Shown: positions 916 through 7,741 of the stretch, piece after piece | How the letters are laid out: each line of letters begins with the position of its first letter | How positions within the stretch are numbered: the stretch's first letter is position 1 | Translations under genes and position numbers: made by a program | Notes under the pieces: generated by a model | The model's input: only the letters and a program-made list of their open reading frames with translations | Told to the model about the DNA's origin: nothing | Databases searched by the model: none | From: an uncultured Arcobacter sp. | Lineage (GTDB): Bacteria > Campylobacterota > Campylobacteria > Campylobacterales > Arcobacteraceae | Assembly: GCA_965140705.1 (NCBI GenBank) | Contig: OZ223300.1 | Coordinates: 448,001 to 512,000 of the forward strand | DNA: 64,000 nucleotides | Direction of reading: 5' to 3'

Positions 916-2126
916 TGTTATTAAAAGCCTTTTTAATTGCTATAAAAGAGATAAGAAGAAATATTTTGCGTTCTATTTTAACTGTCTTAGGAATAGTAAT
1001 AGGGGTTGCTTCTGTTATTGGTATGGTGATGCTTGGAGATGGAACAACAGCTAGTGTAAAAGCAAACATAGAAAAGCTTGGAACAAATATGTTAATACTT
1101 CGAGTAGGACAAGAGCGAAGAGGGGGACCACGAACTGACAACAGTGCAAAACCTTTTAAGCTTACTGATGTAACTGCCATAAAAAATCAAGTAGATAATC
1201 TAAAAGCAGTGGCACCTGATAATAGTACAGGGGTCAATTTAATTTATTTAAATAAAAGTTATACCTCAAGTGTGGTTGGGACAAATAATGATTATTTTGT
1301 TATAAAAGATTGGAAATTAAAAGATGGAAGATATTTTGATGAGAGTGAATTAAATAGTGGAAAGTCATCTTGTATTTTGGGTACAACTATTGTAAAACAA
1401 CTTTTTGGAGATGAAAATCCTGTAGGTGCAAAAATTAGATTAAAAAGCTTTTCTTGTAATGTTATTGGAGTTTTAGAGTCAAAAGGTGCCTCAACTTTTG
1501 GACAGGATCAAGATGAGATAGTTGTGGTTCCTATACGAATGCTACAAAGAAAGATACAAGGAAATAAAGATGTAAAATCCATAGTTATTTCTGTAAATTC
1601 AAATAAGAATATAAAAAGAGCTAAAGAAGATATAAAACTTTTAATGCAAGATAGAAGAGCTATAAAAGTAGGTGAAAGTGATAACTTTTATATAAGAGAT
1701 ATGGAAGACTTACTCTCATCTATGACTTCAACTACAAAGATGCTTACTTATTTATTGGGCTCAATAGCAGCAATTAGTCTGCTTGTTGGAGGTATTGGTA
1801 TTATGAATATTATGCTTGTATCTGTAACTGAGCGAACAAAAGAGATAGGTATTAGACTTGCAATTGGTGCAATGGAGAGTGAAGTTTTACTTCAATTCTT
1901 AGTTGAAGCCATAGTTTTATCTACACTTGGTGGAATTATTGGGATAATTTTAGGTATTAGTATAGGTTATATTGGTGTTTCATCTTTTGACTTACCCTTT
2001 ATAATAAATGAAAAAATAATCCTAATTGCCTTTTTCTTTTCTACTCTTATAGGAGTTGTCTTTGGATATTTCCCCGCAAGAAAAGCTGCAAGGCTTAACC
2101 CTATTGATGCATTAAGATATGAATAA
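915..2126 (+). CDS. ABC transporter permease, MacB/FtsX family
   Basis: RSILTVLGIVIGVASV, GGIGIMNIMLVSVTERTKEIGIRLAIGA, PARKAARLNPIDALRYE. Confidence 0.93.
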   Translation: MLLKAFLIAIKEIRRNILRSILTVLGIVIGVASVIGMVMLGDGTTASVKANIEKLGTNMLILRVGQERRGGPRTDNSAKPFKLTDVTAIKNQVDNLKAVAPDNSTGVNLIYLNKSYTSSVVGTNNDYFVIKDWKLKDGRYFDESELNSGKSSCILGTTIVKQLFGDENPVGAKIRLKSFSCNVIGVLESKGASTFGQDQDEIVVVPIRMLQRKIQGNKDVKSIVISVNSNKNIKRAKEDIKLLMQDRRAIKVGESDNFYIRDMEDLLSSMTSTTKMLTYLLGSIAAISLLVGGIGIMNIMLVSVTERTKEIGIRLAIGAMESEVLLQFLVEAIVLSTLGGIIGIILGISIGYIGVSSFDLPFIINEKIILIAFFFSTLIGVVFGYFPARKAARLNPIDALRYE

Positions 2127-2131
2127 TAAAT

Positions 2132-2150
2132 AATTATAATAACGATTATC
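2132..2150 (+). promoter_or_regulatory. Fur-box-like site
   Basis: AATTATAATAACGATTATC matches GATAATGATAATCATTATC at 14/19. It precedes an extended -10 (TGtTAATAT 2179-2187) and an iron-uptake operon. Confidence 0.65.
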
Positions 2151-2240
2151 AGTTTTAATAAGTAATTAAGCTTAGCTCTGTTAATATCCCATTAATTTTT
2201 AGTTAACTATATTAGCTAAATATAAAAATGAGGTATTAAT

Positions 2241-2375
2241 GTGAGTGAGAATAAAGATAAAAAAATTGAATCAAAAGAGATTTTTAAAGATGGTAAATCA
2301 ATCAAAATTTTGCATGATGGACAATCTTATTATCTAAAAATCACAAAATCAAATAAATTAATACTCACAAAATAA
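2241..2375 (+). CDS. hemP: Hemin uptake/regulatory protein HemP (HmuP) family, 44 aa; not in ORF track
   Basis: GTG start with GAGGT RBS at 2230-2234. Translation MSENKDKKIESKEIFKDGKSIKILHDGQSYYLKITKSNKLILTK has the HemP pattern I.H.G..Y.L..T...KLILTK. Confidence 0.88.
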   Translation: MSENKDKKIESKEIFKDGKSIKILHDGQSYYLKITKSNKLILTK

Positions 2376-2382
2376 ACTAATC

Positions 2383-2418
2383 TAGCCAGCAAAAGTAATT
2401 TTTTTACACATAGCCAGC
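2383..2418 (+). repeat. TAGCCAGC direct repeat (2383-2390, 2411-2418) in the TonB receptor leader
   Basis: Two identical GC-rich 8-mers 28 bp apart in an otherwise very AT-rich spacer. Confidence 0.7.
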
Positions 2419-2490
2419 CAAAAATCAAATTAAATCTTTTTAAATAGTAAATTTTTTCTATTTAAGACTTTTATTTCTTGGAGGAAATGA

Positions 2491-4773
2491 GTGAAAAAAC
2501 ATATTGTAAGTAAAAAACATAAAACAACAAATTATTTAGGCGCATCAGTTGTAACGGCTAGTGTCTTATTATCAAGTCCAATTAGTCTAAATGCTGATTC
2601 TAGTTCGTCAAAATCTACAGTTTTACCTATTAATGTAGTAGGAACAAAAGAAAAAGAACAAAACTATACTAATAGTTATAAAGTAGATAGATCTTCATCT
2701 TCAAAGATTACACAGGATTTATTAGACACTCCCCAAACAATAAGTGTGGTGACTGAAAAAGTTTTAAAAGAACAACAAGCGACAACGCTTCAAGAGGCTT
2801 TACGAAATACTCCTGGTATTACTTTAAACTTAGGTGAAAATGGTAATACTGATCAAAAGAATAATATTATGATGAGAGGTTTTGATAGCCAATCAAGTAT
2901 TTATAAAGATGGGGTAAGAGATAGTTCAAATGCAGTTAAGGATATGTATAATACTGAAGCAGTAGAGATTACAAAAGGGGCAGTTGGAGCTGATAATGGA
3001 AGAGGTGTTTCCTCTGGGTATATTAATCAAGTAACTAAAAAAGCTAAAAATAAAGATGCAGCTGAAATAAATTTAGGTTACAGTACAGGGAAAAATGGAA
3101 GAGTTACAACTGATATTAATAAAAAGCTAAATGAAACTACTGGTTTAAGAATAAACCTATTAAAACAAAAAGGTGATGTAGTAGGAAGAGATGTTGTAGA
3201 AATAGATAGAACAGGAATAGCCGCTTCATTGGGGTTTGGAATTGGTACAAACACAAGAACTACAATTAATTATGAAAGATTTAAACAGGATGATATTCCA
3301 GATGGTGGAATTCCAACAATAGGTTTAGATAGTGTTCATATTTCAGCCTTAGAAGCTGCTGGAATTTCTCCAAGTGAAGTAGATAGGAAAAACTATTATG
3401 GAAGTGATTCTGATTTTGAAAAAGCAACATCAGATGTATATAGTTTAGATTTTGAACATGACTTTTCAACAACTACAACATTAAGTAATATCACGAAATA
3501 TACGAAAACAAAACAAGAAATGATAATAAGTGCTTTATTATCTCCTACTATTACAAATGTAAATGATCCTAGTACTTGGACTATAAATAGACTTTCTAAT
3601 CAAAAATGGGAAGAAAATGAAGTTTTAGTAAATAAAACGAATCTTATAACAAGTTTTGAAACAGGTTCTATTGGACATAGTTTAAGTACAGGGTTAGAGT
3701 ATATAAAAGAAAAAAAGAGATCAAAGGCTTATAAAAATGCTGGAGATAGGAAGGATATAAATATATATAATCCAAGTAACTCTGTTACTGGAAGAGATTT
3801 ATCGATGAATCCTAAAAATATTGTAGGTGAAGTGGAAACTGTGGGTATATATTTATTTGATTCTATTTCTTTAAGTGACAAATTTATGCTTATAGGTGGA
3901 GGAAGACTTGATAGATATGAATTAAAACAATCAGGAACAAATGTTACTACTCCAAGAGGAGGAGGGGCTGCAACAATTTCGCAAGTTAATGAAAAAGATA
4001 GTGGTACTTTAAAGAGTTGGAAATTAGGTCTTGTATATAAACCACTAGAAAATGGAAGTATATATATATCACATGCCACTTCACAATTACAACCAGGTGG
4101 AAATACATTAGCTTTTAGAGCAGACTCAACAAGAGGACCTAGTCAATCTGATCCAAATAAAGATCCAGAAGAATCAACAACAAGTGAATTAGGTACAAAA
4201 TGGGATTTTTTAGATAATAGATTATCTTTAACAGCAGCTATCTATAGAACTTTAGTAAAAAATCAAGTAACTACTGAATCTGATGGAACATACACCCAAG
4301 AAGGTGAAAAAGAGGTTAAAGGTATTGAATTAGGAGTTGTAGGTCAAATTACTGATAAATTTTCAATTAGTGCAGGATTTGCTAAAGATAAAACAGATGT
4401 AAAAAGTAAAGGAGCTAGTGATGATGGTGCTGCTTTAAGATTTACACCTGATTGGAGTGCAACCTTATGGAGTACTTATAATTTTACTCCAGCTTTTACT
4501 GTAGGATTGGGTGCTACATATATGGGTAAACAAAAAGTTTCATCATCTAAATCAGGGCAAGATACTCCTATAAATGGAAGACTAACTGAAATTGATGATT
4601 TCTTAGTATTTAATACAATGGCTTCATACAAAATAGATAAACATTCATCTTTGCAGTTAAATGTTTATAATATTGCAGATGAAGAGTATGTGGCAAATAC
4701 TAATAAAGATGGATTTAGATATACCCCAGGGGCTGCGAGATCAGCTTTATTAACTTATAGTTATAAATTTTAA
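2491..4773 (+). CDS. TonB-dependent siderophore receptor, Fiu/PiuA-like
   Basis: Plug DTPQTISVV...LQEALRNTPGIT.NLGENG, MRGFD, EAVEITKG; C-terminal YSYKF; GGAGG RBS; followed by piuC. Confidence 0.9.
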   Translation: MKKHIVSKKHKTTNYLGASVVTASVLLSSPISLNADSSSSKSTVLPINVVGTKEKEQNYTNSYKVDRSSSSKITQDLLDTPQTISVVTEKVLKEQQATTLQEALRNTPGITLNLGENGNTDQKNNIMMRGFDSQSSIYKDGVRDSSNAVKDMYNTEAVEITKGAVGADNGRGVSSGYINQVTKKAKNKDAAEINLGYSTGKNGRVTTDINKKLNETTGLRINLLKQKGDVVGRDVVEIDRTGIAASLGFGIGTNTRTTINYERFKQDDIPDGGIPTIGLDSVHISALEAAGISPSEVDRKNYYGSDSDFEKATSDVYSLDFEHDFSTTTTLSNITKYTKTKQEMIISALLSPTITNVNDPSTWTINRLSNQKWEENEVLVNKTNLITSFETGSIGHSLSTGLEYIKEKKRSKAYKNAGDRKDINIYNPSNSVTGRDLSMNPKNIVGEVETVGIYLFDSISLSDKFMLIGGGRLDRYELKQSGTNVTTPRGGGAATISQVNEKDSGTLKSWKLGLVYKPLENGSIYISHATSQLQPGGNTLAFRADSTRGPSQSDPNKDPEESTTSELGTKWDFLDNRLSLTAAIYRTLVKNQVTTESDGTYTQEGEKEVKGIELGVVGQITDKFSISAGFAKDKTDVKSKGASDDGAALRFTPDWSATLWSTYNFTPAFTVGLGATYMGKQKVSSSKSGQDTPINGRLTEIDDFLVFNTMASYKIDKHSSLQLNVYNIADEEYVANTNKDGFRYTPGAARSALLTYSYKF

Positions 4774-4817: not shown

Positions 4818-5498
4818 ATGCTTTTACACATACCAAATGTATTAACAAAGGAACAAGTTTTTGAGTGCAGAAAACTCTTAGATGAAGCTACTTGGGTAGA
4901 TGGAAAATTAACAGCTGGAAGTCAAGCTGTTAATGTAAAAAGTAATCTACAACTTGCTGAAAATGATCCTTTGTTAAAACATTTAAGAGATATGATTACT
5001 TCAAGTTTAAAATCAAATCCACTTTTTGTATCAGCTGCTTTACCAAATCACATTATTTCACCTTTTATAAATAGATATGAAAACAGTGGTGAATATGGAA
5101 ACCATGTAGATAATTCAATTTTATATGATACTACTGTTGGTAAAAGTTTCCGTACTGATATCTCTAGTTCACTATTTTTTACAGATCCTGATGAGTATGA
5201 AGGTGGAGAGATGATTATAGAAGATACCTTTGGAACCCACGAAGTAAAACTTCCAGCTGGAGATTTATTACTTTATCCCTCAACAAGTTTACATAGGGTT
5301 GAGCCAGTCACTAAAGGTGTTCGAATGGTAAGTTTTATGTGGACTCAAAGTATGATTAGAAGTGCTTGGAAAAGAAGTATTTTATTTGAACTTGATAATA
5401 CAATTCAAAGTTTAAGGTCAAAATATGGAGAGACTAAAGAAGCTGTAGATTTATCAATTCATTATCATAAACTAATTCAAGAATGGGCGGAACTTTGA
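4818..5498 (+). CDS. piuC: PKHD-type Fe(II)/2-oxoglutarate hydroxylase, PiuC/YbiX family
   Basis: WVDGKLTAG.QA..VK.NLQL, YGNHVDN, YEGGEM.IEDTFG, YPSTSLHRVEPVT.G.R, WTQSMIR. Confidence 0.9.
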   Translation: MLLHIPNVLTKEQVFECRKLLDEATWVDGKLTAGSQAVNVKSNLQLAENDPLLKHLRDMITSSLKSNPLFVSAALPNHIISPFINRYENSGEYGNHVDNSILYDTTVGKSFRTDISSSLFFTDPDEYEGGEMIIEDTFGTHEVKLPAGDLLLYPSTSLHRVEPVTKGVRMVSFMWTQSMIRSAWKRSILFELDNTIQSLRSKYGETKEAVDLSIHYHKLIQEWAEL

Positions 5499-5499
5499 A

Positions 5500-6597
5500 T
5501 TGAATACAATAGAGCCAAAACTAGATTATATTCCAAATGAGATTGTTTGTGTTGATGATTATGAAAGCTTTGCAAAATCTAGAGTAGATACAAATGCTTG
5601 GGCTTATATTTCATCTGCTTCAGCAGATGAAATAACTTATAAAGCTAATAAGCAAGCATTTGATAAAATATCTCTTTTAAGCAGAACATTAGAAGATTTA
5701 AAAGGTGGGAACACAAAGTTAAGTTTATTTGGGCAAGAGTATGCACATCCTATTTTTTTAGCTCCTGTTGCTTATCAAAAATTAGTTCATATTGATGGTG
5801 AAATTGCAAGTGCCCAAGCTGCTAATGCCATGGAAGCCTGTATGATGTTAAGTGGCTTTTCAAGTACTTCTTTAGAAGAGATAAGTACCTATTCCAACTC
5901 ACCTTTATGGTTTCAATTATATATGCAAATAGATATGAATGATAATTTATTTCTAATAAAAAAAGCTGAAAGCTTAGGTTATAAGGCACTAGTGATTACA
6001 ATAGATGCTCCAATTGCAGGAATTAGAAATAAAGAACAAAAAGCAGGCTTTGCCTTACCTTCTCATATAGAAGCTGTAAATTTACGAGGAATGAAGCAGT
6101 TAGATTTAGATTTGAAAGAAGTTCAAAGTACTATTTTTGATGGGATTATGGTACATTCCCCTACTTGGGAAGATATTAAGTTTATAAAAGAAAATACAAA
6201 GTTACCAGTTATTTTAAAAGGTATTACACATCCATCATATGCAAAAAAAGCAGTTGAGCTTGGGATTGATGGTATTATTGTTTCAAATCATGGGGGAAGA
6301 ATTTTAGATACTCTTGTTTCTACAATTGATATTTTACCAAAGATTGTAGAGGTAGTTGATGGGGAAATCCCAGTTTTATTAGATGGAGGAATTAGAAGGG
6401 GAACTGATATAATAAAAGCTCTTGCTTTTGGAGCAAGTGCTGTTTTAATCGGCAGACCAATTATGTTCGCTCTTGCTACATCAGGAGCTTTAGGTGTAGC
6501 ACATATTTTAAAAATACTAAAAGATGAGTTAGAAGTTTCTATGGCACTTACAGGGTGTAAAACCCTTAAAGATATTACAAAAGAGATTTTATATTAG
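5500..6597 (+). CDS. FMN-dependent alpha-hydroxy-acid oxidase/dehydrogenase
   Basis: WFQLY, LVITIDAP..GIR, ILKGI, VSNHGGR, DGGIRRGTD, GRP. Confidence 0.9.
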   Translation: MNTIEPKLDYIPNEIVCVDDYESFAKSRVDTNAWAYISSASADEITYKANKQAFDKISLLSRTLEDLKGGNTKLSLFGQEYAHPIFLAPVAYQKLVHIDGEIASAQAANAMEACMMLSGFSSTSLEEISTYSNSPLWFQLYMQIDMNDNLFLIKKAESLGYKALVITIDAPIAGIRNKEQKAGFALPSHIEAVNLRGMKQLDLDLKEVQSTIFDGIMVHSPTWEDIKFIKENTKLPVILKGITHPSYAKKAVELGIDGIIVSNHGGRILDTLVSTIDILPKIVEVVDGEIPVLLDGGIRRGTDIIKALAFGASAVLIGRPIMFALATSGALGVAHILKILKDELEVSMALTGCKTLKDITKEILY

Positions 6598-6610: not shown

Positions 6611-7741
6611 ATGCATAAAAAATTTTTGTTTAAAGTACATATGATTTTAGGCTTGACAGCTGGAGTTATTTTATTAATTATGGGAATAACAGGAGCAATG
6701 CTATCTTATCAAAAAGAGATATTAAAATATATAAATAAAGATAGTTTTATAGTAGAAGTTCCAAGTACAAAAAGATTATCTGCAAAAGAGATATTAGAAA
6801 AATTTGAGCAAAAATTTCCAGATGCTAAAATAAATGCATTTATTTTTTCTAGTAGTGCAAATAGATCTGTAGTTATTAATGTAAAAGCTAATGGTGAAGG
6901 AAAACAAGCAAGAAGGGGAATAAATTATTATATTAATCCCTATACATCAGAAGTTTTACCAAGCACACAAGGCTATACATTTTTTAAACTTATTGAAAGA
7001 ATTCATAGGGGATTGATAATTGGAGAAGTTGGAAAACAAATAAGTGGAATCTGTACTTTTGCTCTATTAATACTTATGTTTAGTGGAATATATGTCTACT
7101 GGAAAAGAGTAAAAAATTCATTTTTCAAAAGTTTTACCTTTAGTTTTAAGGATAAAAAAAGAGCATTTTTATCAAATATACATTTTGCAATTGGAATGTG
7201 GGTAATACCATTTTATTTGTTATTATGTATTACAGGTGTTACTATGACATATGATTGGGTAAAAGATGGCTTATATAAAGTTTCAGGGGTTGAAAAACCT
7301 ATACGACAAAAAAGAATGCCAACACCAAAAAATAAAAAAGGTGAAGTTACAGCTTCTATATCAAATGGTGATGTAGAAAAAATAGTTCAACTATTTAATA
7401 AGAATGTCAAAGAGTATGAAAATGCTACTTTACAAATTGGCAAAAAAAGTGATGTAGTAAAAATAAGTTATTTTGCAAAAAATGCAATTCATGATAGGGC
7501 AAGAAGTGAGATAACATTAGATACAAAAACAAATAAAGTCATAAAAAATGATAAATTTGAAGATAAAGCTTTAAATGATAGATTAATGAGAAGTATTATT
7601 TCTCTTCATACAGGAGAATATTTTGGTCTTTTAGTTCAAGGAATATTAGGAATATCATCCCTAATGATGGTACTATTTACAATAACTGGTTTTATGATGT
7701 ATTTTAAAAGAAAAGAAAAAAAATCAGTCAAAAAAATATAA
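6611..7741 (+). CDS. PepSY-associated TM helix protein (PiuB-like)
   Basis: H.ILGL...GITG, YINPYT, IH.GL, SGIYVYW, NIHFAIG, SLHTGEYFG, ITGFMMY. Confidence 0.85.
   Translation: MHKKFLFKVHMILGLTAGVILLIMGITGAMLSYQKEILKYINKDSFIVEVPSTKRLSAKEILEKFEQKFPDAKINAFIFSSSANRSVVINVKANGEGKQARRGINYYINPYTSEVLPSTQGYTFFKLIERIHRGLIIGEVGKQISGICTFALLILMFSGIYVYWKRVKNSFFKSFTFSFKDKKRAFLSNIHFAIGMWVIPFYLLLCITGVTMTYDWVKDGLYKVSGVEKPIRQKRMPTPKNKKGEVTASISNGDVEKIVQLFNKNVKEYENATLQIGKKSDVVKISYFAKNAIHDRARSEITLDTKTNKVIKNDKFEDKALNDRLMRSIISLHTGEYFGLLVQGILGISSLMMVLFTITGFMMYFKRKEKKSVKKI

Follow-up and report, generated by a model that had tools for sequence, protein, structure and literature searches.

What do two short direct repeats do between a hemP gene and the siderophore-type TonB-dependent receptor gene that follows it? 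The question is raised by a 64,000-nucleotide stretch of DNA from an uncultured Arcobacter sp. (contig OZ223300.1, positions 448,001 to 512,000; the whole stretch is called the window here, and positions are counted from its first letter). On the plus strand, hemP (2241-2375) and the receptor gene (2491-4773) are separated by a spacer of 115 nucleotides (nt; 2376-2490, from the hemP stop to the receptor start), which holds one copy of the repeat (TAGCCAGC) at 2383-2390 and another (TAGCCAGCC) at 2411-2419, both on the plus strand. By their sequence, these repeats are very probably HmuP-responsive elements (HPREs), and I think it probable that the pair lies in a hemP-receptor mRNA on which HemP acts to raise expression of the receptor.

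A sequence-only reading of this stretch had placed two copies of TAGCCAGC at 2383 and 2411, and both are exactly there, 28 nt apart and with the second 72 nt before the GTG start codon of the receptor gene. They are the sole copies in the window. Since at least two copies turned up somewhere in 12 of 100 shuffles of the window, the count alone is weak evidence and it is the clustering that matters. The whole genome (3.10 Mb, 28% G+C) holds, on both strands together, 10 copies of TAGCCAGC and 44 of AGCCAGC, and same-strand pairs of AGC[CAT]AGC lying 10-70 nt apart occur only twice; by my own arithmetic from those counts, about 0.6 such pairs would be expected genome-wide. One of the two is the hemP-receptor spacer. 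Outside open reading frames (ORFs) of at least 90 amino acids (aa) there are 11 copies of AGCCAGC: two form the spacer pair, five lie in candidate tRNA-like genes, and four lie in a zone of contig C3 described at the end. Furthermore, the genome has six Plug-domain receptor genes and the motif occurs in the 200-nt leader of just one of them, the gene at 2491-4773; the other five 200-nt leaders contain no exact copy, and one has a single word with one mismatch.

Is the pair kept in relatives? Among 61 related genomes, the source genome included, 13 have hemP, and all eight loci in which a receptor gene directly follows it carry two direct copies in the spacer (57-119 nt). The pair lies within 1.5 kb downstream of hemP in 10 of the 13 genomes and is lacking over that distance in two (L018 and L010); in the remaining one the contig is too short. 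Eight family genomes scored as hemP-negative and scanned for the pair contain no exact pair. A wider search gave 80 loci, the nearest from Arcobacter iocasae and Arcobacter metagenome-assembled genomes (MAGs), which places the window in an Arcobacter, in keeping with the earlier placing of the host in Campylobacterota; by naive ORF calls, 31 of the 80 have at least two copies in the spacer after hemP. For an unbiased word count I took the AT-rich loci whose spacer was 50 nt or longer, 29 in all (the window and 28 loci of the wider search). AGCCAGC ranked first, occurring in 28 of 29 spacers, with at least two copies in 27; it was found in 0/29 of the 150-nt regions upstream of hemP and in antisense in 0/29. 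The two loci short of a full pair are L061, where a short spacer was probably missed by the ORF call, and L094, from a gammaproteobacterial MAG, where one copy is good and the other degenerate. The repeats are thus conserved in orthologous spacers, and the loss of conservation that the sequence-only reading had named as a ground for abandoning its idea was not found. The pair occurs in several Arcobacteraceae genera, in Sulfuricurvum, and in one Sulfurospirillum locus at the edge of the flanking sequence. A phylum-wide scan for the exact pair pattern matched 124 of 401 genomes, many from higher-G+C genera, with several matches per genome and on both strands; I took these to be mostly unrelated and set them aside, using only the rows from the family and the places in genome G008.

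The loci in which another gene intervenes show to which gene the element belongs. Where tonB or another gene begins 10-34 nt after hemP, the immediate spacer lacks the motif. In 8 of 18 such rows, which are seven distinct places (L022, L014/L107, L015, L047, L051, L055, L071), the pair is found instead 20-40 nt before the next receptor-like ORF with a signal peptide; the other 10 rows show no pair within the flanking sequence examined. Thus, the element is part of the receptor leader and not of the 3' end of hemP. The receptors themselves differ. Going by best matches from partial sequences, all below the cut-offs, they are of heme/hemoglobin type in L012, L037, L040 and L054, of Fiu type in L062 (Sulfuricurvum) and L048 (Thiobacillaceae), of CfrA/enterobactin type in L017 and of generic siderophore/FoxA type in L019. 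Judged by N-terminal sequence and with no NCBIfam match, pairs also precede a PepSY_TM-like gene (L046) and an ExbB-like gene (L059). The AT-rich leaders of Arcobacteraceae make the element stand out, and it tracks the receptor gene whatever the substrate class.

Supporting the assignment, the repeats share a core with published HPREs, a likeness that the sequence-only reading had raised but could not confirm: AGCCAGC(C) also occurs in the elements predicted in Chromobacterium violaceum upstream of chuR (CCCGCAAGCCAGCCGACAGCCAGCCAGCG) and of the siderophore receptor gene vbuA (GCCAGCCAGACGACGCCGCCG; available text of PMC9131926). The pair is a direct repeat with this core, it is conserved in orthologous leaders and co-occurs with hemP, and it lies before a TonB-dependent receptor gene in the expected position and sense orientation (72 nt before the GTG; 0/29 antisense). 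In the available text of PMC9241770, the HPRE is described as a direct repeat, widespread among alpha- and betaproteobacteria but "absent in gammaproteobacteria". An Arcobacter host falls outside the alpha- and betaproteobacteria, which are not a defining feature of the element, and therefore extends its known range. My literature search for HmuP or HemP together with Campylobacter or Arcobacter returned nothing on Campylobacterota, and an Rfam scan of 1900-2800 gave no family near threshold.

The element was described as HPRE1/HPRE2 in the 5' untranslated region of shmR in Ensifer meliloti (Amarelle et al. 2019, Biometals 32:273, as cited in the available text of PMC9131926 and PMC9241770). 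There, as here, a direct repeat stands in the leader of a TonB-dependent receptor gene with a link to HemP/HmuP, and a positive post-transcriptional effect has been proposed; the likeness runs through the AGCCAGC(C) of the predicted counterparts in PMC9131926, not through the E. meliloti sequences themselves. The two differ in range, which is reported as alpha- and betaproteobacteria and here is Campylobacterota, and in receptor, which here is Fiu-type and not a heme receptor. Furthermore, E. meliloti hmuP presumably does not adjoin shmR, whereas hemP here is the cistron directly upstream of the receptor. The closest parallel in arrangement is chuP of C. violaceum (de Lima et al. 2022, PMC9131926), where, according to the available text, a hemP-like gene comes first in a Fur-repressed operon, the receptor gene is next with no promoter between them, the HPRE lies 26-49 nt before the start codon, and the siderophore receptor vbuA is also under ChuP/HPRE control. 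The C. violaceum elements, in a high-G+C genome, have copies that are adjacent or overlapping, whereas here the distance between copies is 28 nt (18-38 nt in relatives), a conserved pyrimidine linker fills the gap, and Fiu-type leaders also have a covarying hairpin.

Both the element and its connection with HemP have been published before. The sequence-only reading had stressed that the receptor is for a siderophore and not for heme, but such use is not new either, since the ChuP/vbuA case is in print (PMC9131926). The finding is the extension of a described element and not a new kind of system. New against the literature that I searched are the HPRE in Campylobacterota, its association with at least four receptor classes, the conserved, anti-Shine-Dalgarno-like pyrimidine linker, and the covarying hairpin in Fiu-type leaders.

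The protein that would act on this element is well supported. The hemP ORF has a GTG start with GAGG 7 nt upstream, and its 44-aa product matches PF10636 with 54.7 bits (cut-off 25) along positions 2-37 of the 37 in the profile, which confirms the earlier assignment to the HemP family. The same reading had called the ORF missed, but gene callers did not overlook it, since the public protein collection (NCBI, ENA) already contains the identical 44-aa sequence. An alignment of 44 HemP sequences shows no change at Y30, L32, T35, K36 or K39-L42, while H25, T43 and K44 are kept in 90% or more. HemP/HmuP proteins are under 90 aa (available text of PMC11442138), and both the small size and the conserved C-terminal strand and histidine typical of them are seen in this protein. 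Heme binding has been reported for ChuP and for B. multivorans HmuP (available text of PMC9131926). The sequence aligns with the relatives 2jra, 2loj and 4ynx in the PDB, and an AlphaFold model (mean predicted local distance difference test score, pLDDT, 89.1) has a short helix and three strands; a Foldseek search with this model matched YdiE (4ynx, template-modelling score 0.75), RPA2121 (2jra) and 2loj, all of them HemP-family entries, with no RNA- or DNA-binding fold among the hits. The entry for 2jra is titled as domain-swapped, and 2jra and 4ynx each contain two chains, by analogy with which HemP is probably a dimer with two binding surfaces. CsrA and RsmA are dimeric leader-binding regulators that bridge two short sites near the Shine-Dalgarno sequence (SD). 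The likeness is one of working only, that is, a small and probably dimeric protein with two short single-stranded sites tens of nt apart near the ribosome-binding site; they differ in that CsrA has no fold similarity to the HemP model and that CsrA usually represses, whereas HemP activates.

How might HemP and the repeats work together? In the explanation that I favour, transcription probably begins upstream of hemP, at a promoter under Fur control, and the mRNA would run through hemP into the Fiu-type receptor gene, with the HPRE pair in the untranslated stretch between the two cistrons. Under iron limitation Fur would release the promoter, and HemP made from the first cistron would act on the HPRE pair of its own transcript and so increase expression of the receptor. 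The HPRE module, made up of the two repeats and the pyrimidine linker between them, would be the only C-rich partner for the G-rich SD in this AT-rich leader, a probable HemP dimer on both repeats could free the SD, and the translated mRNA might then also be more stable. I infer that HemP binds the repeats, as does the literature consulted.

That the repeats act in RNA, together with HemP and as a positive element, I regard as reasonably probable. In short spacers the second copy (HPRE2) is only 19-36 nt from the start codon, too little for a promoter to fit between, so that transcripts there must include the repeats; because a promoter downstream of them is thereby excluded, a view at the level of RNA is favoured. 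Copy-to-copy spacing among relatives takes the values 18, 23-25, 28, 30, 32, 35 and 38 nt, and such unphased variation suits a flexible RNA better than a phased DNA site. Together with the strict sense orientation, these two features are the reason for favouring action in RNA. The published ChuP data agree with this (available text of PMC9131926). Furthermore, the module is nearly unstructured (-3.6 and -1.3 kcal/mol), as would suit a single-stranded site for protein binding.

The step that follows binding is less certain, and here the predicted fold of the leader has to be weighed. The receptor SD, GGAGG at 2480-2484, lies within a conserved TTTCTTGGAGGAAA on the plus strand. The sequence-only reading held that HPRE copy 2 and its flank (2414-2425, CCAGCCAAAAAT) pair with 2473-2484 (ATTTCTTGGAGG), that this hides the SD with the help of an inner hairpin, and that HemP opens the fold. 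Both segments read as it had given them, but their ungapped complementarity is only 8 of 12. The minimum free energy (MFE) fold of RNA 2376-2500 does contain the pairing, as CC/GG and CCAA/UUGG around a 2x1 internal loop; copy 2 is the predicted partner of the SD in the window, with a pairing share of 0.79, and is invariant in all 17 aligned Fiu-type spacers. The inner TAAATAG/CTATTTA stem is borne out as an AU-rich hairpin at 2440-2465 on the plus strand, in which 2440-2447 (TTAAATAG) pairs with 2458-2465 (CTATTTAA) around a 10-nt loop. It has an energy of -5.7 kcal/mol in the window (z -2.40, with 5 of 200 shuffles as good) and is present in 14 of 17 Fiu-type leaders, with 99.1% of cells paired, and absent from three. 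Two of its eight pairs show two-sided changes (U-A to C-G and A-U to G-C, in three sequences each); the alignment also has two U-G cells, and the loop varies in length. The inner hairpin is the only part of the proposed fold that is supported.

In all 17 Fiu-type leaders the predicted partner of the SD lies inside the HPRE module. Six of them, that of the window included, are predicted to use copy 2; in eleven the SD pairs with the linker or copy 1. When the module is barred from pairing, the probability that the SD is unpaired rises from 0.00-0.40 to 0.31-0.80 (in the window, from 0.21 to 0.42). Composition alone may account for this, since a leader with 28% G+C has no C-rich stretch other than the module. 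The linker at 2391-2410 is AAAAGTAATTTTTTTACACA on the plus strand and in most Aliarcobacter relatives AGTAAAGTTCTCCTACAAA, with an anti-SD-like UUCUCCU; TTCTCCT occurs in 17 of 29 spacers, a count inflated by relatedness. RNAalifold on the 17 leaders gives a single consensus helix, that of linker UUCUCC with GGAGGA (-2.13 kcal/mol), and not the helix of repeat 2 with the SD that the sequence-only reading had put forward.

Several results weigh against the unmasking of the SD or, more widely, against the favoured explanation as a whole. The fold is no more stable than composition predicts: RNA 2376-2500 has -17.2 kcal/mol (z -0.84, with 38 of 200 shuffles as good) and RNA 2405-2495 a z of -0.44. 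Occlusion of the SD is likewise within the range of shuffles. With shuffled upstream sequence the mean probability of an unpaired SD is 0.23-0.50, and a fraction of 0.02-0.70 of the shuffles (0.35 for the window) leave the SD no more accessible than the real leader does; this is not significant for single leaders, nor jointly when seven lineage groups are pooled by a rough Fisher test (p about 0.14). In the 17 leaders the SD helices are free of compensatory changes: changes in the linker:SD helix are one-sided only, from C-G to U-G, and the HPRE2:SD pairs are invariant in the alignment, so that covariation cannot speak for or against them. The linker in the window has lost the CUCC of its Aliarcobacter relatives, and heme-type and other receptors carry weak AAGGA sites that could pair little with the module. 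One hemP, that of L018, has no pair within 1.5 kb. Finally, reports from Bradyrhizobium and Burkholderia describe HemP/HmuP as an activator that binds DNA (cited in the available text of PMC9131926, PMC9241770 and PMC11442138). Release of the SD as the working step is accordingly a tentative proposal.

What else could the repeats be doing? The specific helix of copy 2 with the SD, opened by HemP, is one version of SD release, and I consider it rather doubtful. Both the MFE and the centroid fold include it, HPRE2 takes 0.60-0.79 of the pairing probability of the SD in the window and in L024, L025, L036, L038 and L045, and the covariation-supported hairpin shortens the loop that it must close; however, its energy is within that of shuffles, its four G-C pairs never vary and so make conservation uninformative, in 11 of 17 leaders the SD is predicted to pair with copy 1 or the linker, the hairpin is missing from three Fiu-type leaders, and the helix could not form in leaders with AAGGA sites. 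An unlikely alternative is that HemP on the pair governs the fate of the mRNA, blocking Rho loading or RNase attack on a C-rich, G-poor untranslated stretch after the hemP stop, so that transcription or message survives into the receptor gene. In its favour, chuR and vbuA mRNA fall in a chuP deletion mutant and chuR has no promoter before it (available text of PMC9131926), and the idea suits a module that is unstructured, begins 6-28 nt after the hemP stop in hemP-receptor loci and has more C than G (9 versus 5 in 2383-2425); the AU hairpin, behind which comes a U-rich run (2466-2479), might act as a weak site of pausing or termination. Against it, no terminator is predicted in the spacer, although the scan requires three G-C pairs, and loss of mRNA can follow secondarily from poor translation.

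It is distinctly unlikely that the repeats are a DNA operator to which HemP, by itself or together with Fur, binds so as to activate a promoter of the receptor gene within the spacer. Burkholderia multivorans HemP and Bradyrhizobium japonicum HmuP, cited as transcriptional activators for which DNA binding has been proposed, belong to the same protein family and exert positive control over iron/heme receptor operons, and 115 nt could hold a promoter, for example with the TATTTA within the hairpin. The B. multivorans site, as quoted in the available text of PMC9241770, is however an inverted repeat, GGCTGCGCGCCCGGGCGCAGCC, whereas the repeats here are direct, sense-only, not helically phased and, in several relatives, too near the start codon for a promoter and leader to follow. 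The spacer contains no predicted plus-strand promoter-like site and no Fur-box-like match, HemP has no known DNA-binding fold and its model matches HemP-family structures only, and ChuP, which binds heme, did not shift chuP-chuR DNA in the available text of PMC9131926. A chance or neutral local duplication is highly improbable: shuffles of the window do contain two or more copies at the rate given above, but the pair is kept in spacers of 57-159 nt that are otherwise unalignable, across several genera and four receptor classes, and the upstream controls hold none (0/29). Of the mechanisms, I thus put release of the SD first, protection from termination or decay second and a DNA operator third.

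A bolder version of the favoured reading, to which I give little credence at present, is that HemP and the HPRE form in Campylobacterota a portable, protein-operated RNA switch that may stand before any TonB-dependent receptor gene, be it of heme, catecholate, enterobactin-like or hydroxamate-like type. The two single-stranded AGCCAGC sites would flank an anti-SD stretch of pyrimidines that holds the SD, UUCUCCU in most Aliarcobacter and decayed to a U-run here, and a heme- or iron-sensing HemP dimer would clamp the sites and release the SD. HemP/HmuP proteins are widespread and their working is disputed between DNA-binding and post-transcriptional activation, a split that the available text of PMC11442138 describes as unresolved. 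If the switch were real, it would be the first concrete molecular mechanism for the HemP family, and the part of HemP would be to regulate the translation of iron receptors in general, not to serve heme uptake. The leaders collected here are natural variants for the study of RNA binding and translation, with spacers of 57-159 nt, with or without the hairpin and with or without the CUCCU linker. In annotation, the pair predicts which receptor of a genome is under HemP control (one of six here).

From where is this transcript driven? A consensus scan finds a promoter-like site, TTAAGA-17 nt-TATAAT, at 2112-2140 on the plus strand (10 of 12 matches), with TAATAT at 2182-2187 as a possible alternative -10. 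Overlapping it at 2137-2151, with no strand assigned, is a Fur-box-like site, TAATAACGATTATCA, which has two mismatches to the 7-1-7 Fur-box consensus, TGATAATNATTATCA, and is the only match with at most two mismatches in the window. Matches with three mismatches are at chance level (23 found against 23.25 expected) and were not used. The half-site ATTATCA recurs at the same relative place upstream of hemP in Arcobacteraceae loci. A Fur-controlled hemP-fiu transcript, with its start site and co-transcription, is thus predicted from sequence. Between the Fur-box-like site and the SD of hemP lies a conserved plus-strand block, TTAAGC-N8-GTTAATATCCCATTAATTTTTAGTTAAC (2166-2207), which in loci of Arcobacter, Aliarcobacter, Halarcobacter and Poseidonibacter is preserved no less well than the Fur box and could be the true -10 and start-site region, a second operator, or a leader element of hemP.

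The pair stands in an iron-uptake cluster. The 760-aa receptor, which starts with GTG and has Plug and barrel domains, passes the NCBIfam Fiu equivalog NF007349 with 699.9 bits against a cut-off of 686, and it is followed on the same strand by a YbiX/PiuC-type Fe(II)-dependent dioxygenase gene (4818-5498; NF003975, 314.3 bits); the score above cut-off and this neighbour together identify a Fiu-type catecholate receptor, as the sequence-only reading had called it. No receptor of the genome exceeds the heme-receptor cut-off (best 130.7 against 316.85 bits), so the only hemP of the genome would serve a catecholate-type system, and by sequence HemP seems here to be tied to that type of receptor alone. 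A PepSY-associated transmembrane protein is encoded at 6611-7741 on the plus strand (PF03929, 211 bits), and a MacB-type ATP-binding cassette pair lies upstream of hemP. Between the PiuC-like dioxygenase and PepSY_TM genes, and thus within an iron-uptake cluster, is a plus-strand gene for a protein of the flavin mononucleotide-dependent alpha-hydroxy-acid dehydrogenase family (5500-6597; PF01070, 412 bits), a homologue of dehydrogenases and oxidases.

Some further features of these loci are worth recording. Of the 17 Fiu-type receptor genes (window 2470-2493 and loci L024-L045), 16 start with GTG or TTG and not with ATG, and all 17 have a strongly conserved TTTC(T/C)(T/A)GGAGGAA around the SD, more than an SD alone would need. 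In the Aliarcobacter spacers L026-L034 and L041, a second small hairpin, AAGTAA...TTACTT, lies 3' of HPRE2, and a GCTGG word could pair with the CCAGC of HPRE2, a candidate structure that would hide HPRE2. The hemP of L018 (G016) is an orphan followed by a hairpin and no pair. In L010 (G043, 1411-3048) hemP overlaps the end of a TonB-like gene, and 5 nt later come ORFs that by eye are sigma-factor-like and anti-sigma-like; no HPRE pair is found there within 1.5 kb.

The second same-strand pair of the genome (C3:20533/20567, minus strand) was rejected as an HPRE site: it lies in an ORF-free zone and no receptor follows it. This zone is part of some 120 kb at the end of contig C3 (1-120000) that are nearly without ORFs of at least 90 aa, with an ORF cover of 0.00-0.19 per 10-kb bin against contig means of 0.78-0.93 and a G+C content of 18-26%. 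No Rfam family reached its gathering score in C3:19027-22034. Reading TAA as sense opens 90% of the zone, a weak test in AT-rich DNA. This end of C3 may have decayed, or it may be DNA of foreign and perhaps eukaryote-like origin that was joined on during assembly.

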